The notes: generated from the letters alone by a model not told the origin. A stretch of 64,000 bases of DNA from Sphagnum compactum (GCA_965153455.1 OZ234493.1:62001-126000), one strand, 5' to 3'. Counted from the stretch's first letter, positions 1 through 22,825 are shown. Program-made: numbers and translations.

Positions 1-1906
1 TAGTAATAATAAATAATAAAAATAATGAAAAATTATCCCAAGAAATAATTTTTTAATATCTAATTAATTAATGAAATAAAAAATTAAATCACTTCTGTTT
101 TTAATATATCTGATTATTTGGCAATTACTTCTAAAATAATAAATTTCTACTCATCCAATTACTAAAATATAAATATTAATTTTACCTCTAAAAATAAACC
201 TTTTAAATTGTTAGTAGGTGTATTAGTTAAGATCTTCACCATTAATTAGTAGTAATAGTAAATGGCGACTTTCTTGGTGGATTATTAAATCTTTTTTGGA
301 ATCTTGCTTAGTTTTAGCAACCTACAAAAACACATTGTTTATATCTAGCGACTTCTGAGTTTTTTTGGTTAGATATGGCAAATTGCTTTTAAAAATCTCA
401 AAAATCCATTTGTTCGATTCATTAGCGTTTTTAGTGTGGCTAGGTTGCGAAAATTCACCAAAAAAAAGCACTACTAATGATCAACTAATTAAATAAAAGA
501 TAATTAGTTATTATCTAATGATCTAACAAAATAAATTATTAATTAATTTATAATTCTTGAATATTAACTGTAAACTATTAAATTTCTAGTTTATTAACTT
601 AATTAGTAGATATTAAATCAGTTTTCATAGAGCATTAATATTGATTGATTAATATTAATTAGCTATGAACCATAATTCTTGAATAATAAATATTAACTCT
701 CACATATTTTGATAAATATTAATGAAATAATAAATAAATTACTTCTTTATATTGTATAAATATTAACTAATTAAAAAGTTAAGTATTAGACAAAACTAAT
801 ATATTATGAATTTTATTTATTTATTAAGTAAAAATTAAATCATTTTTAATTCATCATTAAATAGTAAGTAGACAATTTAATTTGTGAAGAATTTATTTTC
901 TGTTATCCATTGCCTGGCTAAATATTTACTAATTAGTAATCATTAAATATTAACCATAACTCTTGATTAACTACCTAAATCAGATTATTGAGATATTTTA
1001 GAACTAATCATGTAATTCGAAATTAATTAATAAGGAATAATCAGATAATTATTATCTGAATAATTTTTTAGAATAACTATTTATTTCATAGTATTCAAAT
1101 ATTTAATAATTTTCATTAAATTATTCAGAAATCATGGATTAATAAATATTAAATATAAATTATGTATTTATAAACCTCTTGACTTGTTGATAGAAAGAAA
1201 GTAATTCTTTATTAACGAACTATTATTTCATATCTCTTAATTAATCAATTAATTAATATGAATAATTCATGACTAATGATTAATTATTGTATCAATTTAT
1301 AATTTAATATCTAATTAATCAAAAATTATTTCTTAAATAACTAATAAATAATAACTGATTATTTTGTTTTAAATGGTTGTTATTTTAAGTGTAATTGAAT
1401 GATGAAATAAAATTATTTAACTCATACTTTATATTAACCAATAAATTGTTTGAAAATAATAATTGTCAAATAATTAATGCTCATTTAATACAAATCTTAT
1501 ATCATATGAATGTAACCTTGCTATAATATTTAGTCATACCTTATAAAGATGGTTTATTTTAAATGAACCCCATACAAAATCAAAATGATTTTTTTCAATC
1601 CAATATGCCGATAATATGGTCAAATATATGTTTAATATATTTTGAACACATATTAAATATCTTCATATACCATGAATACAAGTCAAATATGCTTAATATA
1701 CCTTGAATAAAATTTATATAATGTACTTTTAATGTACTCCACAAAACTTTAATGTACATTAATAAATGTGTAAACACATAATAATAAGTAATTAAATTGC
1801 AACTAATTTTGTAACTAAATGAACATGGGATCCTATTCTTGGATGAAAAAATCATTAAGTTAATCAATATGGAAGAATGTGTAATTTAATAGTCTCACCA
1901 TAGGCG

Positions 1907-2109
1907 CAACTTGAAGGATTGTGCGGAGGAGTATGTGAAGACTTGTTTAACTTGTCAACAAAACCAGACCCTCAACAAGAAGCAAGCGGGTTTGTTACAA
2001 CCTTTGCCGATTCCCGAAGGGCCGTGCGAAAGTGTGTCAATGGACTTTATGATAAGTTTGCCCCCTTCAAAGGGGTTTGATGCCATCATGGTTGTGGTGG
2101 ATCGATTTT
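1907..2109 (+). pseudogene. Fragment of chromovirus pol (integrase zinc-finger end and start of core)
   Basis: Translates KDCAEEYVKTCLTCQQ...SVSMDFMISLPPSKGFDAIMVVVDRF. Near-identical to 18880-19081 of element A. Confidence 0.9.
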
Positions 2110-2686
2110 CATTTGTGGCGTTCACAAGGTCACGGAGTTTGCACCGAGAGATGTAGTCGGAATTCCTTGGAACAAATTTCGACTCGAGGCATTATTTGAA
2201 GAATTCCCAAGTATACCCATGGTTCTTCCCCTCCTCTTGTCTCACCGTCCCCCACCATGTGGTGGCATAGCCTTTCAAGTAGGACTAGGCAAGCTCCACG
2301 GCGGAATGCCGTCCAACCTTGGCGGCATGTATATAATCGTCCATCTCCGCAAGCCAAGCATCCACAACCTTCTGGTCTCAGGCACCATCGTAATTCCCGG
2401 GCTTGGCCGGTTGAAACCTTTCACCTTTGGAGGTCCCCGTTTTGAGGGCTGCCACCAACTCACCAAAGTCCGGCCTATTCATCTTGAGGAGGACTTCAAG
2501 TTGCTCCAGGGTGAATAGGACCGAGCTCCGTTGTTCCTCCTCACTTTCGGGTTCAACCTCGGGCTCATCTTGGTCCTCCCGGAAATTTGGTTCCTCCCCA
2601 ATTGATTCCGGCGGGGCTACTAGGTCTTCGACGGGCTCCTCGGACCTAAGCTCTGGAGCTAGCTTCCGATTCTTCTTGGGTGCCAT
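2110..2686 (-). pseudogene. gag: Truncated gag of copy C
   Basis: ORF 2378-2686 matches the gag N-terminus of element A. Stop at 2378, homology continues to ~2110. Confidence 0.88.
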
Positions 2687-2722
2687 CCCAAACTCCCAAG
2701 AAGTACTTGAGCTTCACCTTGA

Positions 2723-2734
2723 GCTCTGATACCA
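2723..2734 (-). promoter_or_regulatory. Primer-binding site (tRNA-iMet) of copy C
   Basis: TGGTATCAGAGC on the minus strand, 2 nt after the LTR end. Confidence 0.92.
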
Positions 2735-2736
2735 CA

Positions 2737-3555
2737 TGACGCGCTCCTAAGTCCCTTGTTGAACCCACTTGAGGGTTCAACTATGTAGAGTTGCGGAAAG
2801 TTGGGACTTGGGGCCGTTCCCGACTTCCAGCACTAGAAAGGGTAAAGGGGCATGCTAGAAGTCCCGTGATTAGACTGGGAAGAGGACAAGTGTTTCACCT
2901 ACTCAAATCTGCATAAAAAACCAACCCAAGTTGGTTAGAATCCATTCTGCACCCTTTTGGTGTTGGGACAAGCCACGGGCTAACTTGGACTCACTTGACT
3001 CACCACGGCCTGGACTCGGGGGAAGCCACCACCTTCCCCCTTATAGTATTCTTTGCGTCTCACCGCGGAGGCTACATCTGAATGGCTCTTTTTCCCGGGA
3101 CTCCCAAGTTGGAGTCCCGAAACTGTCCTGGGTTGAAGTCCCAAAACTTTGGGAGCTCGTAGCTCCCAGCTCCAAACTCTAATTGGAGTGATCCTTGAAC
3201 CAAAGTTGTAGCCCTTGTCGAGAGCTTTCCAACGCCATGTCGCACTTTTTCTGCAAACGTCCGCAAGAAGTCGATTCCCGACTTTTAGTGGTCGGGAGTC
3301 AAACTGCCAATTTGACTCCCGGCCCTTCTTTTGCCCGTAACTTGGGCTGCAGATGTCCAAATGACCAATGCGAGGGCATTTTAGACATCTACACTTCAAG
3401 ACCTTTCCATTGATATAAAAAACACCTCGAGGCGAGGTGTTTTGACCCCTATAATCTCTCCTGAGTTTTTGAGAGTCCCAGAGGACTCTAAGTCTCGCAC
3501 TTTTTGGAGTGTGAGGTGCACTCTCACCCTTTTGCCTCAAAGTGGGGTTGTCACA
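2737..3555 (-). repeat. 5' LTR of copy C (~819 bp)
   Basis: TG...CA ends. Homologous to LTRs at 14475-14974, 20881-21691 and 21692-22450. Confidence 0.9.
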
Positions 3556-5002
3556 CCCACGCATTCTCTTTCCCAAGCTTTTCCTAACATAAAGTGGATG
3601 GTTGGACCACTCACACAAGGCAATTCATGTGCCTTGACTCGTACAATCCCACTTTTAGATGGGATTCTAACTAACCTATTGTGCCCTTCTATGAACACAT
3701 TGTTTTGGGTGATGAACTCCATTCCCAAAACGCAATCCATTCCACCCAAGGTGGAAACTAACAAATCCACCTTTCCTTTCCAATTTCCCAATTGGAGAGG
3801 CACTCCCTTTGCTTGTAAAGTGGTTGGATGGGGAACCCCATCCGCGAAGTGCACCTCAATGGGTGCCTTGAGCTCCTCCAAGTGGAGCTCCATCCTTTCG
3901 GTGCTCTCCCGAGTTATGAAGTTATGAGAAGCCCCTGTGTCCAAAAGACATAAAATATCCCGCTTAGCGATCTTCCCTTTCAAGAAGATAAGTCAATTGC
4001 ATTCCGGTTGGGCTAGAGTGGCATTGAGAGCAAGTACCTTAGAGCTCCCACTCCCCGGTTTGGACTTGGGACAATCTTTGGAGTAATGCCCCACCTAGTT
4101 GCAATTGAAACATGCACCCTTGGGTTTTGCTCCAAATTCTCCCTTGGTTTGGTTCCCTTTGAAAGGAGCCCCCTTCTTCACAAAGCTCCCTTTGGGTTTG
4201 AACCCCAAGCCTTGGAATTGTTTGGGCTTTTCCTTGGTTGGGCTACCTTGCCCCAATTCCATTCCCCCTCATGCCTTGGTTTCTTGTGAAGGAACTTGTT
4301 GTCCTTATTGAACCCGGATTTGTCGCTCCGCCCTACATCCGAGAAGTTCTCCACTTTCGTGATGGCCTCGGATAGTGAGGTGGGCCAACTCTCCTCAAGC
4401 TTTCGCTTGGCCCAAGTTGGAAGCCCCATCACAAATTGGCACACACGATCCAACTCGTGCATGTGCCGGATCTCAAGCATGAGCTCGGAATAGGCCCTCA
4501 CATATTGCCTCAAATTTTCATTTGTGGCATTCACAAGGTCACGGAGTTTGCACCGAGAGATGTAGTCGGAATTCCTTGGAACAAATTCCGACTCGAGGCA
4601 TTCCTTGAAGAACTCCCAAATATACCCATGGTTCTTCCCCTCCTCTTGTCTCACCGTCCGCCACCATGTGGCGGAATAGCCTTTCAAGTAGGACTGGGCA
4701 AGCTCCACGGCGGAATGCCGTCCAACCTTGGCGGCATGTATATAATCGTCCATCTCCGCAAGCCAAGCATCCACAACCTTCTGGTCTCGGGCACCATCGC
4801 AATTCCCGGGCTTGGCCAGTTGAAACCTTTCACCTTTGGAGGTCCCCGTTTTGAGGGCCGCCACCAACTCACCAAAGTCTGGCCTATTCATCTTGAGGAA
4901 GACTTCAAGTTGCTTTGGGGTGAATAGGACCGAGCTCCGTTGTTCCTCCTCACTTTCGGGTTCAACCTCAGGCTCATCTTGGTCCTCCCGGAAATTTGGT
5001 TC
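3556..5002 (-). pseudogene. gag C-terminal part and aspartic protease of copy B (frameshifted)
   Basis: ORFs 4178-4891 (retrotransposon gag) and 3537-3983 (DTGA protease) are colinear with element A. Confidence 0.9.
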
Positions 5003-5246
5003 TGTCGTGACGTGTAGTGTCGTGACATATAGTGTCGTAAGGGTGTGAATCTGTAAGAAACTCTACTAAACAAACAGCCTAAAACCAATTAAAGGTAGAA
5101 ACTAATCAACTAAAAAGAGATGCATGCACACACATATATATACAATGCACAAGTGAGGCTGAGATGAAATTCTCATGTATCCCCCCCAGACCTGAGCCGG
5201 GAAAAGCGTGGCATGGTCTGAGTAGGAATCAAGGTGCTGTAGGAGA

Positions 5247-5381
5247 GCATGATGAACAGTACCAATTGCCGGCGGGAACTTGAGTGAGTTCCGGCTTGAG
5301 GCAGAAGAGATGGTATCCACCATTACAATTATCGCAAAGCAACATCTGATCAGCATCGTCTATCCTCTAACATACCTAACA
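5247..5381 (-). other. PHD finger (C4HC3) at the integrase C-terminus
   Basis: Manual in-frame translation C*VC*RIDDADQMLLCDNCNGGYHLFCLKPELTQVPAGNWYCSSC. The two TAG stops hide it from the ORF track. Confidence 0.9.
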
Positions 5382-8300
5382 TGGATAATCAAGTGGAGGA
5401 ATCCAAGTCGACGTGATGATGGTAGGATCTAAGTTTGGCAAGTGGCAAAGCGCACAATTTTTGGAATGATCTCGAATTGTGCGTCCATCAGCTCCTTGCA
5501 ACTCCAACACACCTGAAGGCCTGATCGCCTTAATCCTCAAGATAATGCGACCGGAAGAAGTGTCTAAAGTATCATTGGGTTGTCGCTGAAGATACACAAA
5601 ATCACAAACATCAAATTGTCTCACCTTAGGTTTCTAACTGCCACCTCGTGTGTGTGCATATCGTAAAGTGTCTCGATGTTGTGCAATGGACAGGTTCTCC
5701 ATGGCCATGGGCATAACCCTCTTGAATAGAGCGGCCCTTTCTGCAATGACCTTAGCCCAAATGTTTGGGGAGTCCAAGTCCACAACTTAGTCCATTTGAG
5801 CAGCAATGGAAGAGGGTGGAATGGGATGTCTCCCAAAAAGTAAAAAGTAAGGGGAGAAATGAAATAAAGAGGCGTGTTTGGACATCCTGTAACCCATGGC
5901 GATGTAAGGGAGGGCCAGGTCCTAATCCTCTTTGTTCTTAGTGAGGCAAATCTTCCGAAGTCCCTTCTTGCATGTTTGAACCATCCTTTCTGCAAGGCCA
6001 TCAGCTTGGGGATGATCTCTTGAAGTCCGACGATGGTCAATGAGAGCATGGTCAAGTAGGTCTTGGAATTCTCCCCTGAATTCTGATCCTTGATCAGTAA
6101 GGCACTCAACACAAGCCCCAAACCTACTTAGAACCTGTTGTAAGAAAGCCTGGCTAGTGCTGTGTGATGACTTGTCCGATAGCGCAACAAGTTCGACCCA
6201 CTTTGAAAAATGTTCAATCATAATCATGATGTAGACATTACCCCTGGAGGTTTGTGGTAATTCTCCAGCTAAATCACATGACCAACGATAGAACATGCCC
6301 TGAATAGGTAGTGGAGAAAGAGTGAGCTGTCGAGAGGAGAAGGAAGTTCTCACTCTATCACATTGTTCACACCTAGCAATGATGTCTCGGACTTGAGCAT
6401 ACATACCTCTCCAATGGTAATGAGGAGCGAGAAGGCTATAAGTACGCTTAACTCCAAAGTGTCCAAGCTCCGAGTGTACCTTCTGAATAAGACCAAGCCG
6501 TTCATGTGGTGGTGGAACCACTCTGTCGCCTTGTGGTAAGCATCGGACGAGGTGATTGTCCCTCCATGAGTAGCGTTTGGATCGCTGTTGTATGCGATCC
6601 CGCTGACTTGATGTAACTTGGGGAGGGTATTCCCCATGTTGAAGAAACCCCAGAGTGTCCAAGTCCTCCCATATATCCAGAATGGGATGCTCAACCAGGT
6701 TACATTGTAGTAATGCAAGATAACTAGATGCCTCAGATACATGTATTGCTGGGATTTGGTCAAAATCTTGCCTGGCTTCTGAAAAATCTTCAGAGGTAGT
6801 GAGGGGTCTTCGTGACATGGTATCCGCATTTTGATGTGTAATACCAAGTCGGTGAATAACCTTGAACTCATACTCTTGAAGTATAAGCGCCCAACGAGCT
6901 AACTTACCAGTAAGCTTATCGTTGGTCATCAACCATTTGATAAGCTGGTGGTCCGTATACAGAGTGAAATTGGTGCCATAAATAAAGGGCCTGAAATGTA
7001 TGACGGCCCATACAACAGCAAGGCACTCCCCCTCGTATGAAGAGTAGTTGCTCTCAGCCTTGTTGTTGCTTCGAGATGCATAGGCGATAACATATTCCTT
7101 GCCTTCCTCATCAAGTTCGCCCAGAATAGCTCCAATACCAAGAGCACTCCAGTCAGTGTGTAGAATGAAGACCTTGCTGAAATCAGGTCTTCTTAGAATG
7201 GGGAACTCTGAAAGCTTTTCCTTGAGTGTGTTGAAAGCTTCCTGAGCCTCTTCACTCCATGTCCAAGCAACATCCTTCTTTAACAATGCATAGAGAGGAT
7301 GAGCAATAGTATTGAAGTCTTGGACATAAATCCTGTAGTAATTACATAGTCCGATGAAGCTCCTCAAAGTGTGAACATCAGTAGGATCGGGCATCTCCAA
7401 AATGGCTACTACTTTGGCCCAATGAGCCATAATACCATTTGGCAAAATTCTGTGTCCAAGGTAGACTACTGAGGTGACAGCAAACTCACACTTTTTAGGA
7501 TGGATCTTCATATTGACTTCGTGGAGCCTCTTGAATAACTCCTCAAGATGAGCCAAGTGCTGCAGGAGTCCCTTGCTATGCACTAGGACATCATCTATGT
7601 AGCATTTCAGGAAATCTGCCCCTTCGAGAACCTGGTCCATGACTCGCTAAAAGAAGACAGGTGCATTCTTCAATCCAAAAGGCATCACAAGCCATTCCCA
7701 CAACTTGTTGCTTCCATGGAATGTCGTTTTCTTGCGATCCTTTGCAACGAGCACAATCTGGTTGAAGCCTTGCCTCAGATCCACAATTGTGAAGATGTTT
7801 GAGTCTCCAATGCTATCAAACAGTTCTTCAGGGATGGGCATGGGGTACCTGTCCTGAGGTGTAACCAGGTTCAAAGGCCTATAATCCCCGCACATCCTTT
7901 TCTCAATCCATAATCCAGCTGCATCCTTCTTTGCTGGCATTACTATAGCGGCTGCGAAATCAGAACTTGATGGCTGAATGAGACCGGCCTCATGGAGCTC
8001 TTTGCATCTTTCATCTACCAATTCCCATACATGTTTGCTCAACCTATGCCTCCTTCGATAGACCGGTGTCTCATCTGTAAGGTCTATAGAGAACTGCATG
8101 GTCTTACACCTACCTAAGTCTTTCATTGAGAATGCGAACACATTCTCATACTTAATTAGCAAGTCTGTGACCTGGTCTCTCTCCTTCTTGGTGAGCTGGT
8201 TCCCCATAACAAAAGGGTAGTTGGAAACACATGGAATGGAGTTGGAAAGTGTGTTTGAAGAACCTGGTGTATTGGGTTCTCCATTATCCAACTGCGTAGA

Positions 8301-8534
8301 TTCGTAGAAGGTTGTAATTGTTTCTCCAGAAGCTGATGTACCTCGAGGTGTATTGGACATAACTTGAGTCAAATTACATGGTACCTCCTCCCCCCCAACA
8401 CTGAGAGTGAAATGTAGAGTGTTGAAGATAGGCAAGTATACTTGGTCAGGGTGCCATGTGGTTGCATCGCCAGAACTGCAAGCTGATTGAGTCAATGTTG
8501 GTGTTGTGTACATTTGAAAGAGTATACAGGTTAC

Positions 8535-9473
8535 CAACAACCATGTAAGGGAGTTCAGGTCCATGCTTCTCCCCAGTAAAGCGTTATGCTCCAATCTAGT
8601 CACCTTGGTGTGACTAGTAGTGCTAGTTTGGAACCCCATAGCCCTTTCTCTTTCTTCTGGGCTTGGTTCATCCCAAGTGGCTGAAGCATGACGATACACC
8701 AAGCCTGGTCCATCTCCCTGAAAGGCGTGTGCTCCAGGGAAGGAGACAAAGGTGGGCCAAGCACCTCTTGGTTTTCCTATTGTATTCGCAAGAAACCAAG
8801 GAGGTTTCTCTTGCCTTGTAACTAGTCGGCAAGAGCTCTGATCATCCAATATGTGAGAAACCTGTAGGTTGTGGTCTCTGATGGTGTATCTCAGAGCCAA
8901 CTGCAGAATTGAAAGTGGTGCAAGGTTGGTCCACCAGTTGCGCAGCCGGTGCGCATAGGAACCGCATTGTGCCGCATCGAGTAGGAATGGCTCGCCAAGG
9001 TAATGTTTAACAAGTGTGTAGTGCTCCTGGACTTTCTCCCTCTGGTCAAGCTGAGAAGGGATGTTCTCAATTACATAACCAAGCGTAGGGGAAATGGATT
9101 GAGCCCAGGTGATCAATCGTACCATGTCCGTGAAGAGACCGGATCTTGTGTCACTCAAGCCTTCTCCAAATCCAGCTGCTGAAAATCCTTGACACTCCCA
9201 ACCTGAAATGATGAGGTCCACGGGGCCAAGTAATTCCATATGCTTATTCTGAATTAATTGTATGTCAGGGGGCAAGAAAGTGAAACTGGCCTTCCATGCG
9301 GTGGTTGTAAACTGTTGTGGAAATCTGGTTGTGAGCTCCATCATTCTCGATGCTGCCACTTGCCTTGCAATAGGATCAATGTCTACGTAGAAATACTTTC
9401 GAACCACCATCCCTGACTATAGTAGGGCTTCGAGACCTATACCAATACCACCAAAGAGCTCTAGTAATGTAAT
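8535..9473 (-). other. DNMT3-like DNA (cytosine-5) methyltransferase domain within Pol
   Basis: Ordered C5-MTase motifs: I LELFGGIG, II VDID, IV DLIISGWECQGFS (Cys at 9192-9194), VI YVIENI, VIII AHRLRNWWTNL, IX ERERAMGF, X LLGRSM. Confidence 0.92.
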
Positions 9474-10591
9474 CCCTTCCTTAGGTGGTGTCCAGGTGAT
9501 TAGCTGACGGAGTAATGGCTTAATCGGTTCGCCATGGCTCTCCATGCTTTCAAAACTAGACAAAGCTTTGACCAAGGGCTTATGGGCTACTTTGAACCTT
9601 TGTAAAACCTCTGGTCCATGTTGAATGTCAGTAGGAACCACCCTCAAGCTTTCAGTAGCTTGAGCGTAAGCTATCTCCTCTTCATCTCCCTCTATCCATT
9701 CGTGGCTAGGTTGTTGGATGTAGGAAATGGTGTGTGCTTCCTTGAGCATACAATGGTGAGCCATAGGACTATGGTTCCCATGTAAATCAAGGGGTATGTA
9801 TCCCAGGTGGTGGCCATCAGTCTCCCAATCCACTCGGTAGTACGCATGTTCGAACCAGTTGTCAATTGTGAAACCTGGTGGAAACAGGGCCTCTTGCCCA
9901 ATGAGCACATCATAACTAGTGGCATTGGTGACTAAACATCTGACCTGTAGGCAAAGCTCCTGATTTGTACCTTCATTGAAATTAAGTGCAATCAAATCCG
10001 AGCTCTCCCCAAGTACCTCCTCTACGCTCCCACTAGCGATGCGAATGTGCCACATAGATTTTCGTAGTTTGGAGTCAAGCATGCCCATCTTCTTGGCGAA
10101 TTGAACTCCAAGAATCACTGGTTGGGCACCTGTATCAAGAAGAACCACTCTGGGTGTATGTCCTCCCACCTGGATTGCTGACTTAGTATTGTCGACAATG
10201 GCAACTCCGGTGGCGATGGAAGTTCTCTCACTAGGCACCACCTTCGGAAATGAGTGAGAGACTTTGTGGAGAGAATGGCTATCCACAACGCCTTTGCTGA
10301 GTAACAAATCCACAAGTGAGGTGTTCTTAACTCCCTTTTGATATGTGAATGTAGAATCAGAGGTAGGAAAGCTCACTAGTTTAGCCATGCCAGAACTAGT
10401 GACCAGATTACAAACGCCATCTGCAACACGTGAACCAATCGAATGTCTCTCCAAGGTGTTGGATGGGACCTCTGTAGCATGTGGATTAGGGAGTGGTAGA
10501 GGACCTGATGTAGTGTTCAAGGTATCCTCTAAGATTGCAATTATGTCCCTGGTGCTTAGCTTCAAATCTTGAAAACTAAACAATGGTGTAC

Positions 10592-12634
10592 TCACAAGCT
10601 TTTGCGCCACTCATGCATTTGAAGTTGGCATTCCATAAGCTGATCAGTGAAAAATTGTGTGTTTTCCTCATGTACTTGTACTCTTGGGACATGAGAATTT
10701 GATGCCCTAACAGCTTGTGGTGTAGTAGTCTCCTCCCCCCTCGCCAACAAGGTGCGTTCTTCTTCCATGTTGAGATGACGAAAAGATTGTGGCATGACTG
10801 CTCGAGCTCCTCTAGCCCTAGTAATAGGACTTGAGCCAGATGTGAATCCATCAGTCTGAATTACCTGCCTAGTGGCAGAAACTCTAGGTGCCACACTAGC
10901 TTCTTGTGCCGCGACATAAGAAGGGCAAAAAGAAGTAGCCAATTCTGGTGTGAGACTAGAATTGTGTGGAGTGGAAAGAACATACTCCCCAACCATTGCA
11001 TCGTGTGGAAGGCCATAGAACGACCTAGGAGGTCCCTCGCGTGATCCCGAACCTTGTATAGGTTGGGCATGACTAGCTGGTTGGGAGGACTTGCCCTTTA
11101 GATTAGCAAGTTGGGCCCTCAATGATTCAAGTTCATTTTGTAAAGTCTGAACTTGAATTGCATGGGCTTGAAACACCTCCCTCTTATCAGCATTTTGCTC
11201 CTTCTTCTTAGCATTCTTGTTGGAATTATTCTTGGTGGGCAAAGCCTGAGTGGAAGGCTGAGGTGCCTTGGCTTTTGGTTGACGGACAGCGGAAGATGCT
11301 GGCAGATTTTGTCATTGTAATCGGAGTTGCTTCCGCTCTGGGAACTTGGCAAAACAGACAGATTCATGATGTCCCTCTTTCCCACAATAATCACAAAAGA
11401 GATCCTCGGAAGGAATGTTACACTCACTAGCTTTGTGGGCAGGATTGCCACAGTAGTTGCAAGAAGGTAGGATGGGTGTAGCCGAGTGCACCGCTTTAGT
11501 CCTTGAAGAAGAATGCGATGATCTAGTTGGCGTAGCTGGTGTAGGTTGAGGCCTTGAACGTGATGGAGGCCTCATAGTACTGGCCTCATAGTGTGCATGA
11601 GCCAGTTCTAGCTTTTCGGAAATGTTGTACACATCCAACAAAGTGTACGAGTCTCCAAATTCTACAAAGACACGTTGCAAAACCTGCGCGTGCAGTGTTG
11701 GAGTACCTTCCAACGAACGAAGATACCGATGGGCAGCTTCTAGGTCTGTGATGCTCTGGGTATCCTCTTTGAGTTTGAGAAGCCTCCTGTAAAGCATCTT
11801 GAGGGTTTCATCCTTTTGCCGCGAAAAAGTGGCGAGCTGTAGAATTTTTTCAGAACTTTTGACTGGAAATTCCAGCTCAAGAATTCGAAAGAATTCCCCC
11901 ACTGGATCAACAAAAGCTGGCACATCAATGGTGGGAGGAATGTTTGCAGTAGCAGCAATGAGTTGTTCAAGAGAAAGGTTTACTGAGGTAGGTACCGGGT
12001 CTGGATTATTCAGCACAGTCCCGTGATGTGCAATTGCAGCTTGCAATGCAGCTTGAGAGGCGGTGGCGATGGCTATGGCGTAAGCTGGATTAGGAGCTTG
12101 GGTGACACCCAAAATCCTTGCAGAATGTTGCTCGTAGACATCCAATGCCTCATAATGCACATAACGAGCCAATTGCTTAAATGCAAACGCTTTGGTGTAA
12201 TTAGCACCATACTTCAGCTCCAATTCACAGACCACTGTTGGGAAAGTTTCCTTGAACTCGCTCAACGAAATAGTACCTGGCCTTCCGCTGAACTTCTCTA
12301 TTCTCCCAGAGGAATTGCTGACCTCCATGGTGTATATAGGTGTTGAAGTCACAGCTCGCAACGGAGTATACGGTGATGGTGCGAAAGTAGGTGCAGCAAC
12401 AGGTGTACCCCACTGATTGACCCCTCCAAATGGACTTTGATGTACTGTTGATGTAATGTAACCTGAACCTAAATTCCTAATAGGAGTAGTACTAGATGAC
12501 GATGGTGCTATGGGTGCTTGATGGTACCAACGTGAAGATTGTGAACTCAAAGATATTGGTTCAAAAGGTTGTGGGTTACTTCGTAACTGCCTTGGTTCTC
12601 GATGAGTAGTAGTACTTTCATCATCCGAGGTCAT
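10592..12634 (-). pseudogene. gag: Gag of the methyltransferase element with two CCHC zinc knuckles (one internal stop)
   Basis: Probable start MTSDDES at 12634. Gag-like RQKDETLKMLYRRL. Knuckles CNYCGNPAHKASEC and CDYCGKEGHHESVC. The TGA at 11312 is in frame with ORF 10592-11242. Confidence 0.85.
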
Positions 12635-12779
12635 GGTGTTGTCCCATGCCCCAAAATTTTGTACTAATATAATCCCCCAATTACAAAATCCTAACACAAT
12701 GTATGGTTTGAATCTCCCTAATTGCAGGACGATAGTATGGTAAAATGCAGCAAGATAAACTTCAAGACACAAGACCACA

Positions 12780-13740
12780 CGATGCACGACCACAGTGCGC
12801 AGAACACAGGAAACAGGACTGCAGTACAATACTACGCAGGACGGTACTACACAGGATGGCAATACGCAGTACGGCGGTACGCAGCACGACATGACGCAAG
12901 ACGATAAATACGGTGATGTCAGCAGTGACGTAGGCAGGACGCAGGACGGTAGTACGGTGATGTCAGCAGTGATGTAGGCAGGACGCAGGATGGCAGCACG
13001 ATGACGTCAACAGTGACGTAGGACAATCCGACGAACGTCGGACGGAAGTTGAACGCACGGAACTTGAACGAATCGTCTGACGAGAGTCCGACGAAAGTCG
13101 GACGGACGTAAAACGGACCAAGGTCGCAGCGATGGCGCTGCAGCTCGCAACATTGCGACGCTACGTTGTTGCTGCTACAGTGCTCCTACGGCAGCGATGA
13201 CGTTGTTGCAACGTTGCTGTTGCGGCGTTGCTGTTGCGGCGCTGCTGCGCTGTTGCTGCGACGCTAGTGCTCCAGCGATGGCGCTGTGGCACTGTTGTTA
13301 CGGCCTTGAAGCTACGGCGCTACTGCTGCAGCTGCGACGCTACGGCACTATTGCTGCGGCGCTGCGGCGCTATTGTTGCGGCGCTATTACTACAGCGATG
13401 GCGTTGTGGCGCTGTTGCTGCAGCGATGGCGTTGCGGCGCTGTTGCTGCAGCGATGGCGCTGCGCCGCTGTTGCTGCAGCGATGGCGCTGCGCCGCTGTT
13501 GCTGCAGCGATGGCGTTGCGCCGCTGTTACTGCGGTGCTTCTGTTGCTGCGGTGCTGCTGTTGCAGCGATGGCGCTGCGGCGCTGTTGCTGCGGTGCTGC
13601 TGTTGCTGCGGTGCTGCTGTTGCAGCGATGGCGCTGCGGCACTGTTGCTGCGGCACTGCTGCTACAGCGATGGCGAGGGGCGCTAGAGCTCGCGGCAACG
13701 GCAGCGCTGGGATGCTGCGCAGTGATGGCAGGCGGCGGAC
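12780..13740. repeat. GC-rich tandem repeats in the 5' leader of the methyltransferase element
   Basis: ~27-bp unit GCAGCGATGGCGCTGCG(G/C)CGCTGTTGCT repeated over ~13130-13740. GCAGGACG / GTGATGTCAGCAGTGA repeats and TCCGACGAA.GTCGGA palindromes over 12780-13110. Confidence 0.85.
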
Positions 13741-14168
13741 GTCGCGATTTTTGTTTTTACTCGACAACTTCAAGGGAAAAAAAGAGAGAAAGGAGAGAAA
13801 TTCAAAACTTGTTTCCCGGCTCTATTGGTTGGCATAAGACAAGCTCGTTCTTGTAACAATGCCTACTCCCTTCGACAGTAGCAACCCCAACACCCTCCGG
13901 CAGCAGTACCACCAACAGTAGCAACAATAGCAACAACAACAATAACTCCAGAACTTACAAGCAAAAGAAATCTGTGGTTTACACATGAAGCACAGAAAGT
14001 GGAGTTTTTCTAGAATTGAAATGAATTGCAAAGAACTAATGAAGGTGTATGTAGACGGTGGCCGTGTAGTAACCACTGTGAGCATCTAGAAAATCCAAGT
14101 AAACTATGGAGGCAACTCTCATACAAAGGAATTCTAGAAAAACTAAAGGATAAGGGAAGGGCTTGGCC

Positions 14169-14176
14169 CTTTTATA
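14169..14176 (-). promoter_or_regulatory. Putative TATA box of the methyltransferase element
   Basis: TATAAAAG on the minus strand ~150 bp inside the 5' terminus, followed by a pyrimidine-rich stretch. Confidence 0.5.
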
Positions 14177-14460
14177 CAGCCACCAAAAGCTGAAACCCTG
14201 AACACCTAATAGCGTACAGTCACTTAAGAACGTACGTTAACCCTACAACCGTACATTAACCCTAAAAGGTATGACGGCATGCCCGTAACCGGGCATCATG
14301 TATGCGGCCATGCATACGGGCATGACAGTTCCTCCCCAATTGAATCTGGCGGGGCTACTAGGTCTTTGACGGGCTCCTCGGAACTAGGCTCTGGAGCTAG
14401 CTTCCGATTCTTCTTGGGTGCCATCCCAAACTCCCAAGAAGTACTTGAGCTTCACCTTGA

Positions 14461-14472
14461 GCTCTGATACCA
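14461..14472 (-). promoter_or_regulatory. PBS (tRNA-iMet) of copy B
   Basis: TGGTATCAGAGC on the minus strand next to the LTR end at 14475. Confidence 0.92.
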
Positions 14473-14474
14473 CG

Positions 14475-14974
14475 TGACACGCTCCTAAGTCCCTTGTTGA
14501 ACCCACTTGAGGGTTCAATTATATAGAGTTGCGGAAAATTGGGACTTGGGGCCGTTCCCGACTTCCAACACTAGAAAGGGTTAGAGGGGCGTGCTAGAAG
14601 TCCCAGGATTAGACTAGGAAGAGGACAAGCGTTTCACCTACTCAAATCTGCATCAGAACCAACCCTAAGTTGGTTAGAATCCATTCTGCACCTTTTTGGT
14701 GCTAGGACAAGCCACGGGCTAACTCGGACTCACTTGACTCACCACGGCCCGGACTCGGGGGAAGCCACCACCTTCCCCCATATAGTATTCTCTACAGCTC
14801 GCCCCCAAGGCTACATCCAAATGGCACATTTTGTTGGGACTCCCGAAATGGAGTCCCGAAACTGTCCCGGCTAGACTCCATGAACTTTGAACGGCCATAA
14901 CTCCCGACTGCAGAGTCCGATCACGACGAGGTCTGAACCAAAGTTGTAGCCCTCGTCGAGATCTTTCCAACGCC
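14475..14974 (-). repeat. 5' LTR of copy B, 5'-truncated
   Basis: Homologous to the other LTRs. Breaks off at TCCAACGCC where it abuts the oppositely oriented LTR of element A. Confidence 0.88.
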
Positions 14975-14975
14975 T

Positions 14976-15578
14976 TGGGCAAAAGAAGGGCTGGGAGTCA
15001 AACTGGCAGTTTGACTCCCGACCACTAAAAGTCGGGAATCGAACCTTTCCCGACGTCGCCTCAAAGACTGCAACATGGTGTTAGAAAGATCTCGACGAGG
15101 GCTACAACTTTGGTTTAGACCTCGTTGCGATCGGACTTTGCAGTCGGGAGTTATGGCTGTTCAAAGTTCCGAGAGTCCCGCCGGGACAGTTTCGGGACTC
15201 CATTTCGGGAGTCCCAACAAAATGTGCCATTTGGATGTAGCCTCAGCGGCGAGCTGCAGAGAATACTATATGGGGGAAGGTGGTGGCTTCCCCCGAGTCC
15301 GGGCCGTGGTGAGTCTTGTGTGTCCAAGTGCCCGTGGCTTGTCCCAACACCAAAGGGTGTCTCGAATGCTAAACTAACCTCTTGTGGTTGGTTTTTGGAT
15401 GCAGATTCACACAAGCTAAGCTAGTCCCTCTTCGTAGTCTAATCCCTGGGCTCCCAACTCGACCCTCTACCCCTCTTTAGAGTTGGAAGCCGGGAGCGTG
15501 CCTTTCGGTCCTAACTTTCCGCTACTTCACATTGGTGAACCCTCAAGTGGGTTCACCCCGGGACCAAGGAGCGCGTCA
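14976..15578 (+). repeat. 5' LTR of element A (first ~215 bp missing)
   Basis: Direct repeat of ~21097-21691, ends GCGCGTCA. Confidence 0.92.
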
Positions 15579-15580
15579 CG

Positions 15581-15592
15581 TGGTATCAGAGC
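15581..15592 (+). promoter_or_regulatory. PBS (tRNA-iMet) of element A
   Basis: TGGTATCAGAGC 2 nt after the LTR. Confidence 0.93.
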
Positions 15593-15620
15593 TCAAGGTG
15601 AAGCTCAACTACTTTTTGGG

Positions 15621-18600
15621 ATGGCACCCAAGAAGAACCGGAAGCTATCTCCAGAGCCTAGGTCCGAGGAGCCTGTCGAAGATCTAGTAGCCCCGCCGGA
15701 ATCAATTGGGGAGGAACCAAATTTCCGGGAGGACCAAGATGAGCCCGAGGTTGAACCCGAAAGTGAGGAGGAACAACGGAGCTCGGTCCTATTCACCCCG
15801 GAGCAACTTGAAGTCCTCCTCAAGATGAATAGGCCGGACTTTGGTGAGTTGGTGGCGGCCCTCAAAACGGAGACCTCTAAAGGTGAAAGGTTTCAACCGA
15901 CCAAGCCCGGAAATTTCAATGGTGCCCGAGACCGGAAGGTTGTGGATGCTTGGCTTGCGGAGATGGACGATTATATCCATGCCGCCAAGGTTGGACGGAA
16001 TTTCGCCGTGGAGCTTGCCCAATCCTACTTGAAAGGCTATGCCGCCACATGGTGGCGGACGGTGAGACAAGAGGAGGGGACGAACCATGGCTATACGTGG
16101 GAGTTTTTCAAGGATCGCATTGAGGCGGAGTTCATTCCGAGAAATTCTGACTACATCTCAAGGTGTAAACTCCGTGACCTTGTGAATGCCACAAATGAAA
16201 ATTTGAGGCAATATGTGAGGGCCTATTCTGAGCTCATGCTTGAGATTCGACACATGCACGAGTTGGATCATGTGTGCCAATTCCTGATGGGGCTTCCAAC
16301 TTGGGCCAAGCGGAAGCTTGAGGAGAGTTGGCCCGCCTCATTATCCGAAGCCATCACGAAAGTGGAGAACTTCTCGGATGTGAGGCGGAGTGACAAATCC
16401 GCGTTCAAGAAGGACAACAAGTTCCTTCACAAAAAGCCAAGGCATGAGGGGGAATGGAACCGGGGGCAAGGTAGCCCAACCAAGGAAAAGCCCAAACAAT
16501 TCCAAGGCTCGGTGTTCAAGCCAAAAGGTAGTTTTGTGAAAAAAGGGGCCCCTTTCAAAGGGAGCCAAACCAAGGGAAATTTTGGAAACAAACCCAAGGG
16601 TGCATGTTTCAATTGCAACCAGGTGGGGCATTACTCCAAAGATTGTCCCAAGTCCAAGACAAGGGTTGGGAGCTCTAAGGTACTTGCTCTCAATGCCACT
16701 TTAGCCCAACCGGAATGCAATCGACTTATATTCTTGAAGGGGAAGATTGCTAAGCGGGAAATTTTGTCTTTTGGACACAGGGGCCTCTCACAACTTCATA
16801 ACTGGGGAGAGCGCCGAGAGAATGGAGCTCCACTTGGAAGAGCTCACGGCACCCATTGAGGTGCACTTCGCGGATGGGGTTCCCCATCCAACTACGTTAC
16901 AAGCAAAGGGAGCACCTCTCCAATTGGGAAATTGGAGAGGAAAGGTGGACTTGTTGGTTTCCACCTTGGGTGGAATGGATTGCGTTCTAGGAATGGAGTT
17001 CATCACCCAAAACAATGTGCTCATAGAAGGGCACAATAGGTTGGTTAGAATCCCATCTAAAAGTGGGATTGTGCGAGTCAAGGCACATGAGTTGCCTTGT
17101 GTGGGTGGTCCAACCATCCACTTTATGTTAGGAAAAGCTTGGGAAAGAGAATGCGTGGGAGGTTTTGGCATGATGTGTGTCATGCGGGTGTTGGATGAAT
17201 ATGAGCCCAAGGAAGCCACCAAGTTGGTGACTTCCGCCAAGTGCATAAAGCAAGTCTTACAACAGTTCCCGGATGTGATGCCCGAAGAATTGCCCGAAGA
17301 CTTGCCCCCGAGAAGACGAGTTGATCATGCGATTGAAGTGATACTGGGAGTGGAACCACCCGCCAAGGCCCCATATAGAATGAGCCACGAGGAGTTAAAA
17401 GAACTCAAGGTTTAACTTGAGGAACTCCTCGCAAAAGGTTACATCAAACCAAGCAAGTCGCCATATGGGGCACCCGTCCTTTTTGTTCACAAGAAGGATG
17501 GGACTTTGAGGATGTGTGTTGATTATAGAGCACTCGACAAGGCAACGGTGAAAAATCGGTATCCTTTACCTCGCATTAATGATCTCTTTGATCATCTCTC
17601 GGGAACCAAGGTTTTTAGTAAAATTGATCTACGTTCAGGGTATTACCAAATAAGGATCGCGGAAGGGGATGAAGAAAAGACCGCTTGTCGCACAAGGTAT
17701 GGTTCATATGAATTCTTGGTGATGCCCTTTAGGCTCACCAATGCGCCCGCCACATTTTGCACTCTCATGAATGACATTTTCCGCGAATGGCTTGATGATT
17801 TTGTGGTCGTCTACATAGACGACATTTTGATTTATAGTAGCTCCATGGAGGAGCATGCGGAGCACCTTCGCAAGGTGTTCCAAAGGCTAAGGGAAATAAG
17901 TTGTATGCCAAGCTCGAGAAGTGCGAATTTGGGGTGACGAAAGTGGATTTCCTTGGGCATAGGATAACTCAAGAAGGTTTGATGATGGATGATCACAAGG
18001 TCAAGGCAATTTTGGATTACGAGCCGCCTAAGTCGATTCTCGCCTTGAGATCCTTTTTAGGATTGGCCTCCTATTATCGCAAGTTCATAAAGAACTTTGC
18101 GAGAATAGCAGCCCCTTTGACAAACCTCTTGAAGAAGTCCGCCGTCACCTACGATTGGGATGAAGCATGTAACGAAGCCTTTGAGACATTGAAAGGCATT
18201 TTGGTGAAGGCGCCGGTGTTAAAGTTGCCCGACTTTGACAAGGACTTTGAAATCCATTCCGACGCCTCCGACTTTGCAATTGGAGGTGTCATAGTGCAAG
18301 ATGGAAGACCGGTGGCCTTTGAAAGCAAGAAGTTGAGTGAAACGGAAAGAAGATGGCCAACACACGAGAAGAAAATGTGGGCGGTCATACATTGTCTCAA
18401 GACTTGGGGCCACTACATAGGCTCCAAAGATGTAGTGATGTGGACCGACAATGTGACCTTGAAATACTTCTCCACTCAACCCAAGTTGTCATCGAAGCAA
18501 GTAAGGTGGCAAGACACATTGGCTTTGTTCAATGTGGACATCCGGCACAAGCCGGGAAAGGAGAACATAGTCCCCGATGCCTTGAGCCGGAAACACCAAC

Positions 18601-20099
18601 TTAGAGTGGTGTATGTGGGAGAGTCGAAACTTCAAAAGGAAGTTAGACTAGCGAACCGCCGGGATGCTTTTGCCAAGGAGGTAAGACAAAGCATCCAAAA
18701 TGGAGCCAAGTCCCACTTCCATTTGAGAAATGGATTATTGTGGTACAAACAAAATCGACTCTATGTGCCGGAAGGGAAGATGCGAGACACACTTTTGAAG
18801 GAATGTCATGATGGGCTGCTTGCGGGCCATGGTGGTGCAAAGCGCACCACAACATTCTTAAAGAAGTCCTACTATTGGCCCAACTTGAAGGATGATGCGG
18901 AGGAGTACGTGAAGACTTGTTTAACTTGTCAACAAAACTGGACCCTCAACAAGAAGTAAGCGGGTTTGTTGCAACCTTTGCCAATTCCCGAAGGGCCGTG
19001 GGAAAGTGTGTCAATGGACTTTATGGTAAGTTTGCCCCCTTCAAAGGGGTTTGATGCCATCATGGTTGTGGTGGATCGATTTAGCAAAATGGCACACTTC
19101 ATTCCCACAAAGGATGAAGCCACGGCTCAAGAGACGGGGAGGTTGTTCTTCTCCCACATTTTCAAGCATCATGGCCTTCCAAAGGACATAGTGTCGGATC
19201 GAGACCCAAAGTTTACAAGTAAGTTTTGGCAGGCCTTGTGGAAGCGAATGGGGTCGGAACTCAAGATGAGCACTTCGTTCCGTCCCCAAACCGATGGACA
19301 AACCGAGAGGGTGAACTTGGTGATCCAACAATTCCTAAGGAATTATGTGGCAACAGATCAACAAGATTGGGTGGACCATTTGGAGTTAGCCGAGTTTTGT
19401 TACAACAACTCGGTACACTCCGCAACTGGGTCCACCCCATTCCAAATGGTGACGGGCAAGTCACCAATTGTGCCCATGACTTGGGCAGCACAAGGACAAC
19501 CTTCGATTGATGCAAATGAGGAAGTGCCAATAGTGACGCAACTTGATGAAGAGAGGAAGCGCTTGTGGGAGTTGGCCAAGGCCAACTTAGAAAAGGCGCA
19601 CAAAAGGTACAAGGATTTTGCGGACAAGTCCCGACGAGAGGTGAAGTTTCAAGAGGGAGACGAGGTGTGGTTGAACATCAAGAATTTTAGGTTGCCGGAA
19701 GGTTTAAGTCATAAGTTTTTGGGCCCATATGCGGGGCCATTCAAAGTGTTGGAAAAGAAACTTTCTGACACTTATAAGTTAGAACTTCCGGAAAACCTTA
19801 GAGTTCATCCCACATTTCATGTGTCTCTTTTGAAGCCGGTCGCCCGCGATGCCTCAAAGCCTAATCGAGAGCAAAATTCAAGGCCTCCACCGGACTTGGT
19901 TCACAATGAACCAGAGTTTGAGGTTGAGGCCGTGCTCAAATCAAGGCAACTTAGAGGGCGAGAACGGGAATACTTAGTTAAGTGGAAAGGCTACCATGCA
20001 ATAGAGGCATCTTGGGTGAATGAATCCGACATGGAACATGCCCAAGAAGCCATAGAAGAATTCCACACTAGACCGGCAAAGAAGAGACGTAGAGCGTGA
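15621..20099 (+). pseudogene. gag-pol of element A: Gag-CCHC-PR-RT-RH-INT-chromodomain
   Basis: CFNCNQVGHYSKDC, LDTGASHNF, YIDD, SDASD, SMDF..SDRD..ERVN, GPY/F, FEVEAVL..YLVKWKGY..SW. Frameshifts near 16765 and 17895, TAA stops at 17413 and 18957. Confidence 0.93.
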
Positions 20100-20868
20100 T
20101 GAGGACATCACCTTTATTTTAGTGGGGCGGAATCCCGTATAAAATGTACCACATCAAGTTGCAAGTGAAATAAAAAGGGCTTTAAAACTTCCAAGAGATT
20201 GTATCATGAAAAATTTGTTAAGGCAAATAGGGTTGTGGCATGGGACAAATGGAACTTTCTTGCGTAGGCCCAAATCAAAATCGGACTCCTACTTTGGGGT
20301 TGAGGAAACTTGGCCCCAAAAGAAGAGGCAAGCAAGGTGAGCTTGCGAAGACATGCACATGCCTTAAGTGCATCCCAAAAGGTTGGTTGGTAGTGTGGCC
20401 AACGCGGAAGTCATGACCCCGCTCGCATACTTTAAGTGTAGTTTGGGACTTGGGTTTGGCAAACCCAAATGTTGCTTCTCGTACCTTGATAAGCAAACCT
20501 TTTAGTTAAGGCTTGGTTGTTATGACCAAGGCGCGGGATAGGAAAAGGAGTCATGTCAAATAGCTTAGGTCAAGAGTAGACTTGACTTAAGTCCTCATGA
20601 GGGGAAGAAATGGAAAAAATTCCTCCCAAATGAGGGCTTCGTCAATTATGCTAGTTTAGTCTTTTGACGAAGCATGGGAAGAGGGTTTTCCACAAGACCC
20701 TCTTGGACTTGTCAAGAAAGTGTTGGAATCTTGGGGACGCCTAAGTTAGCTTGAGACAAGGTCCAAGCCGCAAAGAGTCGACAAATGGCCAAGGATCCGG
20801 AAGAAAGCAATTGCAATTGTATGAAGGAAAATTCTAAATGTCAATGAGGACATTGACCTCTTTCTTCT

Positions 20869-20880
20869 AGTGGGGGAGAG
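20869..20880 (+). promoter_or_regulatory. Polypurine tract of element A
   Basis: AGTGGGGGAGAG immediately before the TGTCGCAACC start of the 3' LTR. Confidence 0.85.
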
Positions 20881-21691
20881 TGTCGCAACCCCATTTTGGC
20901 CAAGTGTGGGGGTGAAGCCCAACACTTGGAAAAGTTAGAGGTTTGGAGCCCTCCGGGACTCCTGAATGTTCACAGCTCGACAGCAAGGCCCAAAACACCT
21001 CGCATTGAAGTGTTCTTGGTGTCATTGGAAAGTCTTGAAACTTAGATGTCGAAAATGGTCTTGCATTGGCCATTCGGACATCTGCAGCCCAAGTTATGGG
21101 CAAAAGAAGGGCCAAGAGTCAAACTGGCAGTTTGACTCCTGACCACTAAAAGTCAGTAATCGAACCTTTCCCAACGTCGCCTTAGAGATTGTGACATGGT
21201 GTTAGAAAGATCTCGACGAGGGCTACAATTTGGTTCAAACCTTGTTACGATCGGACTCTGCAGTCGGGAGTTATGGCTGTTCAAAGTTCCGAGAGTCCCG
21301 CCGGGACAATTTCGAGACTCCATTTCGGGAGTCCCAACAAAATGTGCCATTTGGATGTAGCCTCGGCGGCGAGCTGCAGAGAATACTATATGGGGGAAGG
21401 TGGTGGCTTCCCCCGAGTCCGGGCCGTGGTGAATCTTGTGTGTCCAAGTGCCCGTGGCTTGTCCCAACACCAAAGGGTGTCCCGAATGCTAAACTAACCT
21501 CTTGTGGTTGGTTTTTGGATGCAGATTCACACAAGCTAAGCTAGTCCCTCTTCGTAGTCTAATCCCTGGGCTCCCAACTCGACCCTCTACCCCTCTTTAG
21601 AGTTGGAAGCCGGAAGCGTGCCTTTCGGTCCTAACTTTCCGAAACTTCACATTGGTGAACCCTCAAGTGGGTTCACCCAAGGAGCGCGTCA
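20881..21691 (+). repeat. 3' LTR of element A (811 bp)
   Basis: TG...CA ends, follows the PPT. Confidence 0.93.
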
Positions 21692-22450: not shown

Positions 22451-22825
22451 TCATGAGAGCCACTTATTCAAGGAGCGAGGATTTTTGGATTCCTCTCAGC
22501 TCTTAAAAATAGAGCGGAATGGCAGTTTGCCAATGGATGACACTGCTAAGACTCATGTATCGCTGAGTGTTACCATATCATGGATTTATGTACAATGCCA
22601 AGAAGCCATCTTGATGATCATGGCTGCTAGTTCTGTGAGTTCTTTTTACCTTGCTGACTGGACCATTGTGATACTAATTTATTTCCAAGAGTTTTGGTTC
22701 AAATAGCCCATTCTATTACATTCGTAAACCAATTGGTGGCATCTCCTCTCAGTAAGTCTCCAATACTTTCTGGTGCTATGATCTGGACTTTGGTTACTGT
22801 GTAATATTTTGAATGTGGAATTTTG

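Follow-up and report, generated by a model that had tools for sequence, protein, structure and literature searches.

The window, the whole stretch of DNA analysed here, comprises 64,000 nucleotides of Sphagnum compactum (GCA_965153455.1 OZ234493.1:62001-126000). One copy of a Ty3/gypsy-type retrotransposon lies near its beginning, on the minus strand, and the pol frame of this copy ends in a PHD zinc finger (Table 1). The copy interrupts the gag region of another Ty3/gypsy element, several copies of which occur in the window. Comparison with the empty site (...TTTGGTTCCTCCCC) in an uninterrupted copy of this host element at 2492-3239 placed the insertion junctions at 5002/5003 and 14327/14328. 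The GTTC duplication and the TG..CA ends, set against the empty site, indicate entry by an integrase-type reaction. No second copy of the element was found in the 64-kb window.

Table 1. Features of the PHD-bearing element and its insertion site (positions counted from the first letter of the window).
Feature	Position	Strand	Evidence
Target-site duplication GTTC, 3' side of element	4999..5002		Empty-site comparison
Whole retrotransposon copy, 9325 bp, TG..CA termini	5003..14327	minus	Comparison with empty site
Terminal repeat B (3' end)	5003..5180	minus	blastn against sister loci; contig joint 5180 to 14015
PHD finger (C4HC3) and pol stop codon	5229..5381	minus	PF00628; stops from translation
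Integrase C-terminal SH3-like beta-barrel (predicted) and linker to PHD	5382..5633	minus	AlphaFold model of sister copy L002; homology to sister integrase C-termini
Integrase zinc-binding domain (6345-6515) and catalytic core (6009-6290)	6009..6515	minus	PF17921, 57.9 bits; PF00665, 48.9 bits
RNase H domain	6870..7184	minus	PF17917, 124.3 bits
Reverse transcriptase, in-frame TAG at 7647-7649	7446..7898	minus	PF00078 in two adjoining pieces
DNMT3-like C5 cytosine methyltransferase, in-frame TAG at 9417-9419	8595..9497	minus	PF00145, 34.5 bits (cut-off 22)
Aspartic protease	9885..10175	minus	PF13975, 26.1 bits, under the cut-off of 28.2, E 1.3e-5; aligns with sister protein P0050
gag with zinc knuckle, in-frame TGA at 11312-11314	10622..12328	minus	tblastn of P0050
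Tandem-repeat stretch in the long 5' untranslated region	13224..13654		Repeat finding; poorly conserved between copies
Terminal repeat A (5' end), TATA-like box near 14165-14176	14016..14327	minus	blastn against sister loci; joints in sequencing-run contigs
Target-site duplication GTTC, 5' side of element	14328..14331		Empty-site comparison

The Ty3/gypsy pol order of protease, reverse transcriptase (RT), RNase H and integrase (DDE) was recognized by Pfam, with a DNA methyltransferase (DNMT) inserted behind the protease. The order of the entire polyprotein is gag-protease-DNMT3-like methyltransferase-RT-RNase H-integrase-PHD, and a pol frame of 1793 codons, from 10610 down to 5232, holds everything from the protease through the PHD finger. 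The sister protein P0050 aligned by tblastn in two pieces and in different frames, marking a change of frame from gag to pol between 10622 and 10610; many sister contigs have one extra base at 10610 when compared to the window copy. Straight translation and tblastn with an intact sister protein both put the integrase C-terminus in a single frame broken by in-frame stops only, and SH3_Tf2-1 gave no Pfam match in this part (5382-5633). Seven in-frame stops were counted in pol and one in gag, in addition to one frameshift between gag and pol. With these eight stops and the frameshift the window copy is dead.

The 5' untranslated region (12329-14015) is unusually long, approximately 1.7 kb, and its tandem repeat is GC-rich and unlike between copies. 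Sister loci could be aligned only outside element positions ~550-1616. In two metatranscriptome runs, contigs of 90% or higher similarity spanned every coding bin, the finger included; since DNA may occur in RNA libraries and the contigs are strandless, such cover is no proof of transcription. Between 12775 and 13755 cover was near zero in the RNA runs and in one of two DNA runs.

Read directly on the minus strand, positions 5232-5381 encode C-x2-C-x11-C-x2-C-x4-H-x2-C-x14-C-x2-C, which is the canonical C4HC3 spacing. The finger ends in W-Y-C-S-S-C and is followed immediately by the pol stop codon TGA (5229-5231). The last 134 residues of the pol frame, with X at the two in-frame TAG codons, were scanned with PF00628, and the match extended over profile positions 1-47 of 47 (45.6 bits, cut-off 24, E 6.9e-12). 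This E value over the whole profile excludes a chance motif. A sequence-only reading of the window had called a full C4HC3 PHD finger with W-x-C-x2-C at 5229-5381 and had proposed the PF00628 scan; the ligand pattern and the whole-profile match, obtained with the stops read as X, agree with that call. The two TAG stops inside the finger (5376-5378 and 5367-5369) both fall on non-ligand codons and all ligands are present, so that the finger is ligand-complete while its reading frame is interrupted here. The last 50 codons of the pol of this dead Ty3/gypsy-type retrotransposon form a genuine PHD zinc finger in a broken state. An AlphaFold model of sister copy L002 (mean pLDDT 80.9) predicted five strands within residues 12-62, forming an SH3-like barrel of the integrase C-terminus, and the finger starts 22 residues behind this predicted barrel. 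Ten-residue block means over the finger were 84-90, and the modelled finger superposed on solved PHD fingers with an rmsd of 0.5-1.7, which predicts a cross-braced zinc-finger fold.

The neighbouring family of elements is a chromovirus. Its domain order is rve, SH3_Tf2-1 (residues 233-294) and then Chromo (residues 320-371, 50.2 bits), and an example element is found at 15438-20099. The PHD finger behind its SH3-like barrel and the Chromo domain behind SH3_Tf2-1 are therefore in equivalent positions, which can be seen directly within one window. The proposal that the finger is located where chromoviruses carry a chromodomain is borne out by this neighbour. The Pfam scan gave no match to PF00385 (chromodomain) in the PHD element, where the PHD finger takes its place. 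From RT through RNase H and integrase the PHD element and the window chromovirus are only 28% identical. Positions 1-5002 and 14328-22500 are a nest made up of one chromovirus family, in copies as well as fragments (gag, protease, RT, integrase, chromodomain), and contain a partial internal duplication (2105-2404 vs. 4514-4813, 96% alike).

Related proteins were searched for with two different queries. The 134-residue tail retrieved 48 related proteins, 29 of them with PF00628 and ten of those also with an integrase core; the named matches were from Sphagnum magellanicum and the liverwort Calypogeia fissa. The other query was the DNMT part alone, and that search is for this reason not biased towards the finger. 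It retrieved eight long relatives. PF00628 was present in all seven that reach past the integrase, and the eighth, P0050 (80% identical), encodes gag-protease-DNMT in one open reading frame (ORF) and ends within the DNMT. A stop-free sister ORF of 1471 aa contains DNMT, RT, RNase H, integrase and PHD. It had been claimed from the sequence that the PHD finger and the DNA methyltransferase share one polyprotein; the two are in the same pol frame here, and the stop-free sister ORF makes the claim true for intact copies. Absence of the finger from sister copies had been named as an observation that would count against the proposal; sister copies and distant relatives alike were found to carry the finger.

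A scan of metagenome contigs yielded at least 589 related stretches among 600 candidates, and the best 80 of these were used as sister loci (L001-L080); the query included the finger, and its presence in these loci is therefore biased. Codon counts are given for the 66 of 80 loci that aligned ungapped over the last 405 bases of pol. The pol stop directly behind the finger was kept in 66/66 copies. The two codons that are TAG in the window's finger were sense codons in 58/66 and 52/66, and at position 5369, the first base of the second TAG, nearly all contigs from four sequencing runs had a letter other than that of the window. Most of the copies have decayed: all eight ligands were kept in only 22 of the 66, and the finger was also stop-free in only seven of these 22. 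Ligand codons were struck repeatedly, with the same codons hit in different sister copies. Over the last 405 bases the sister copies showed 6.6 transitions per transversion, mainly C/T and G/A. This excess fits decay of methylated cytosines after insertion, and the differences between copies look like the product of such decay.

Within the family, pN/pS was 0.35 for the PHD finger (0.23-0.57, bootstrap over codons) and 0.39 for the integrase C-terminus. Since the transition bias itself lowers pN/pS, controls were run on the same sequences read off-frame (0.55-0.69) and on the 3' non-coding part (0.60-0.69). The upper bootstrap bound of the finger (0.57) touches the neutral controls, which begin at 0.55; the signal of selection on the finger within the family is real but modest. 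Two integrase-PHD proteins named from Calypogeia fissa (P0008 and P0009, on contigs of 4.6 and 24 Mb) were 77-80% identical to Sphagnum-family copies, an identity as high as that among the family copies themselves. Such closeness of moss and liverwort sequences suggests horizontal transfer or mixed DNA in the assembly.

The finger extends far beyond this family. An exhaustive search through 1.84 billion cluster representatives (50% identity) returned 1096 proteins at E up to 1e-10, and 112 of the best 150 matched from the integrase C-terminus through the PHD in one stretch, at approximately 40-50% identity. These 112 representatives were aligned together with one sister copy (n = 113). The eight zinc ligands were kept in 109-113 of the 113 sequences and the Trp before Cys7 in 112; Met97, the Leu-Leu-Cys-Asp strand, Gly106, Pro120 and Gly122 were each kept in 92-113. 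Named hosts were volvocine green algae (Volvox, Pleodorina, Tetrabaena), Chromochloris and Marchantia, and the protein atlas assigned the clade to Chlorophyta and Streptophyta. Judged from these alignments, we regard the deep conservation as stronger evidence than the within-family pN/pS. These data demonstrate that the PHD finger is a conserved C-terminal integrase module in a large and old clade of green-lineage elements.

Two further observations were made in the wider clade. The green-algal relatives P0052 (residues ~1670-2025), P0054 and P0057 continue for approximately 350 residues beyond the PHD finger, with motifs resembling those of SAM-dependent methyltransferases (DPFxGxG ... SPPF). 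Pfam gave no match on this tail in the two that were scanned (P0052 and P0054), and the tail may be a second methyltransferase. P0239, an annotated gene model of Marchantia polymorpha (Mp_7g09570, 612 aa), was 45% identical to the profile of integrase C-terminus plus PHD, with PHD as its sole listed Pfam domain; it could be what is left of a transposon or else a domesticated gene.

The ends of the element are unlike each other. Repeat finding, blastn at word size 9 and local alignment revealed no LTR pair in the window copy, and the two ends share no repeat. Repeat A covers element positions 1 to ~310 and repeat B the last 178 bases, with a polypurine-tract-like G-run (5181-5187) just ahead of B. 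Two bases behind the first B, 38 of the 80 sister loci had an additional A, after which B usually came again; in L020:11296-11776 and L024:11294-11767, for example, B is followed by two variable bases, A and B. The window copy and 29 loci had the short form A-coding-B, which ends at the first B. The layout A-coding-B-A-B also occurred in contigs of a DNA run. Duplications of 4 bp flanked both short and long forms, and among 16 sister copies with both ends, nine had perfect 4-bp duplications and six had duplications matching at 3 of 4 bases. An origin of A-coding-B-A-B from circular DNA opened at the internal CA-NN-TG predicts a mirror form, A-B-A-coding. This form was found in 0 of the 47 loci listed, and the circle-opening model was therefore dropped.

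Elements of a similar kind have been described. KnitGypsy-Dnmt3 of Klebsormidium nitens has a Gypsy pol with an intron-less Dnmt3-like domain, and its repeats are given as 'A-coding-B-A-B', as in DIRS elements, in the accessible text of de Mendoza et al. 2018 (PMC5890265). It shares with the present family the Dnmt3-like domain within a Gypsy pol and the A-coding-B-A-B layout seen here in sister copies; it differs from it in that the present host is a land plant (a moss, with near copies named from a liverwort) and in that the DNMT here lies between protease and RT. The word PHD is absent from the running text of PMC5890265, and no Klebsormidium sequences were among the matches of our tail, DNMT and wider-clade protein searches. 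The phrase 'streptophytes (Gypsy-DNMT3)' is mentioned in accessible text of a 2026 preprint (10.64898/2026.05.21.726589). The present family is large and is a land-plant member of an already published kind of element.

PHD fingers and other chromatin readers are likewise known from transposons. According to passages of PMC8557442, PHD is 'a common accessory domain' in Chlamydomonas transposable elements (TEs), and PHD fingers also occur in CR1 elements and other retrotransposons (passages of PMC6673714, PMC8557442). A broad survey, as far as its accessible text goes, lists PHD and Chromo as the readers most often fused to TE domains (10.1101/2021.11.30.470311). REM1 / Gypsy-7a_cRei of Chlamydomonas is, like the present element, a green-lineage LTR retrotransposon with a PHD in pol. 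Its domains are listed as GAG, PROT, RT, RH, PHD, INT in the legend to Fig. 6 of PMC9940879, which would place the PHD before the integrase, and this legend lists no DNMT. The EpiLTRs of Cymbomonas and Euglena are LTR elements that join DNA methyltransferase domains and a histone reader, as here; in the accessible parts of their description (10.64898/2026.05.21.726589) they combine an adenine methyltransferase, a DNMT4-related DNMT and a chromodomain, vs. a DNMT3-like enzyme and a PHD in the present element. The combination of PHD and DNMT is thus not new in kind. Our full-text literature search found no paper on this bryophyte family or on an integrase-PHD tail together with a DNMT. Chromoviruses carry a histone-reader domain directly behind the SH3-like domain of the integrase, as does the present element; their reader is a chromodomain, whereas here it is a PHD finger in an element without an identical LTR pair. 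This chromodomain is credited with directing integration into heterochromatin (Gao et al. 2008, cited in PMC6673714 and in 10.1101/2021.11.30.470311).

The methyltransferase is of DNMT3 type. Its best PDB matches were the catalytic domains of DNMT3A, 3C and 3B (E about 4e-6), motifs I, IV and VI and the RxR motif align with DNMT3s, and FGGIG, GWECQGFS and IENI are visible. Motif IV (window 9120-9210) has E-C in place of the usual P-C, both in the window copy and in the sister P0050; five green-algal relatives have D-C, P-C or E-C at this site. The moss family has the DNMT between protease and RT, approximately 990 residues ahead of the integrase-PHD tail, with RT, RNase H and integrase separating it from the finger. 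Seventeen representatives with an integrase-PHD tail were at least 1400 aa long, and 16 of them had a homologue of this DNMT approximately 470 residues ahead of the tail, between RNase H and integrase. The green-algal order is thus RT-RH-DNMT-INT-PHD vs. PR-DNMT-RT-RH-INT-PHD in the moss family. The DNMT at window 8595-9497 and that of P0052, P0054 and P0055 are homologous domains at different places in pol. From these layouts it would appear that the DNMT either moved within pol or was captured twice. The finger follows the integrase C-terminus in both layouts. Its fixed place behind the integrase, while the place of the DNMT varies, is the best available argument that the finger serves the integrase, and it speaks against the methyltransferase being steered directly by the finger. 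As DNMT and PHD travel together, a joint strategy is possible, and steering of methylation by the finger seems the less likely role.

What the finger binds may be approached through its nearest solved relatives. Among the 60 PDB matches listed, out of 100, these were the fingers of WSTF, KMT2D/C, CHD4, EHD3, ATXR5 and KDM5 PHD1, and further those of KAT6A/B, BAZ2A/B, DPF2/3, ORC1B, UHRF1, AIRE and PHF21A. No ADD chains of DNMT3 or ATRX were among the same 60 of 100 matches, and by this comparison the finger is not an ADD domain. The ADD of animal DNMT3A/3B/3L resembles it by analogy only, as a zinc finger for unmethylated H3K4 beside a DNMT3-type enzyme; it consists of a GATA-like finger and an atypical PHD fused straight to the enzyme, whereas here the PHD is of the plain type, belongs to the integrase and is distant from the DNMT. 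The fingers of ATXR5, BAZ2A/B, KDM5 PHD1, DPF3 and KAT6A matched with E 1e-11 to 1e-14, and the modelled finger superposed on them with an rmsd of 0.5-1.7 at 33-45% identity; these are host chromatin proteins, unlike the transposon-borne finger. The model superposed on the ATXR5 PHD with histone H3 at an rmsd of 0.9 over 49 columns (45% identity), on the BAZ2A PHD 'in complex with unmodified H3K4 histone peptide' at an rmsd of 1.0, and also on a DPF3b complex. The two-domain model of barrel and PHD resembled the Tudor-PHD units of PHF1, MTF2 and UHRF1.

Most fingers among these nearest solved ones read the H3 tail with unmethylated K4. Readers of this kind lack an aromatic cage and have an acidic patch ahead of the first strand; a cage Trp two residues before the His is carried by readers of trimethylated K4. 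The present finger has an acidic stretch, DDAD, ahead of its first strand, with D/E at position 92 in 79 of the 113 aligned sequences (the acidic-patch criterion itself being general background), and a Gly two residues before the His in 105 of 113. We treat the resemblance to readers of unmodified H3, seen in sequence and model, as a lead only. Close relatives among the PDB matches recognize different marks, for instance acylated H3K14 jointly with a partner finger (DPF3 and KAT6A entries), and the EHD3 finger reads H3K4me1 according to accessible text of PMC13022364.

The best-supported reading, which we would put at roughly even strength on this evidence, is that the finger reads unmethylated H3K4 and guides integration. 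Three other explanations were weighed against it. One holds that the finger has no role and is a chance motif, or a piece of a host gene picked up by the window copy only; it could appeal to the two stops that break the window's finger and to the death of the whole copy. It is refuted by the finger's occurrence in sister copies and in 40-50% identical relatives with almost invariant ligands, and the Pfam E value of 6.9e-12 and the pol stop behind the finger, kept in every ungapped sister copy, also stand against it; its probability is close to nil. A more serious alternative would keep the finger functional and change its ligand from the unmethylated H3 tail to another histone state, DNA or a host chromatin protein, with a role in a different kind of tethering, in nuclear import or in intasome assembly. 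The matched PDB entries do vary in what they bind (H3K14 acyl marks with a partner finger, the Stella peptide in UHRF1, small fragments), and the barrel-PHD model is like Tudor-PHD modules (PHF1, MTF2, UHRF1) that work as units. The best single-domain superpositions were nevertheless on H3-tail complexes, and by the general rules given above tail binding would be in keeping with the conserved acidic stretch and with the M-L-L-C-D strand. We rate a different ligand as possible but clearly the less probable choice.

A further alternative concerns the methyltransferase. The finger could partner the element's DNMT3-like enzyme in the manner of an ADD domain, sensing unmethylated H3K4 and directing or activating the methylation of cytosines in the newly inserted copy or around it. 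The frequent company of the two domains (16 of 17 long representatives with the integrase-PHD tail), the neighbouring positions of DNMT, integrase and PHD in green-algal relatives, and the pairing of a DNMT3-like enzyme with a finger like readers of unmodified H3K4 would all suit such a partnership. It is opposed by the approximately 990 residues of RT, RNase H and integrase between DNMT and PHD here, in a polyprotein that has a protease, by the constancy of the finger behind the integrase while the DNMT was relocated, and by the lack of ADD chains among the 60 of 100 PDB matches listed. The Klebsormidium DNMT gave no methylation in yeast, a result that the authors call inconclusive in the accessible text of PMC5890265. 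On balance we consider this partnership improbable, less probable than a different ligand.

Targeting of integration by the finger is plausible, and under the best-supported reading it could work as follows. After processing by the protease the finger would stay on the integrase, which domains stay together being an assumption. It would tie the integration complex to nucleosomes via the H3 N-terminal tail with unmethylated lysine 4, and new copies would land away from H3K4-methylated promoters and tend into silent, repeat-rich chromatin. The finger would thereby do the job that the chromodomain does in chromoviruses. The methyltransferase would be a separate module of the polyprotein, presumably acting on the element's own DNA and not steered by the finger. 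The suggestion that the copy had landed inside a TE nest proved correct, as it is inserted in another retrotransposon with a GTTC duplication; this single landing site is an anecdote. Of 70 flanks of sister copies, 33 were repetitive, a raw share with no genomic baseline. Among 48 flank ORFs of at least 100 aa, Pfam identified six TE families, each in one or two ORFs, which is too thin for an insertion preference, and no host gene families.

A bolder interpretation may be put forward, although we think it rather unlikely, if a little less so than the ADD-like partnership. Green algae and bryophytes could harbor a clade of retroelements with its own kit for de novo methylation, consisting of a DNMT3-like writer and an unmethylated-H3K4 reader in the integrase. 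Such elements would pick silent chromatin and methylate themselves on arrival, as a transposon counterpart of the DNMT3-ADD logic of animals and a deliberate form of 'stealth', and would replicate in an unusual cycle with split repeats, A-coding-B-A-B, with a DDE integrase.

A family known from one charophyte is now shown to be abundant in a moss, and its integrase-PHD tail to be conserved across a much wider green-lineage clade. Naturally intact copies have been identified that are usable for binding assays, among them the copy at L020:10664-11065. If the finger guides integration, these DNMT-carrying elements would have solved, independently and for a second time, the problem for which chromoviruses use the chromodomain. 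If this is true, bryophytes and green algae would provide a natural system for transposon reading and writing of host chromatin.
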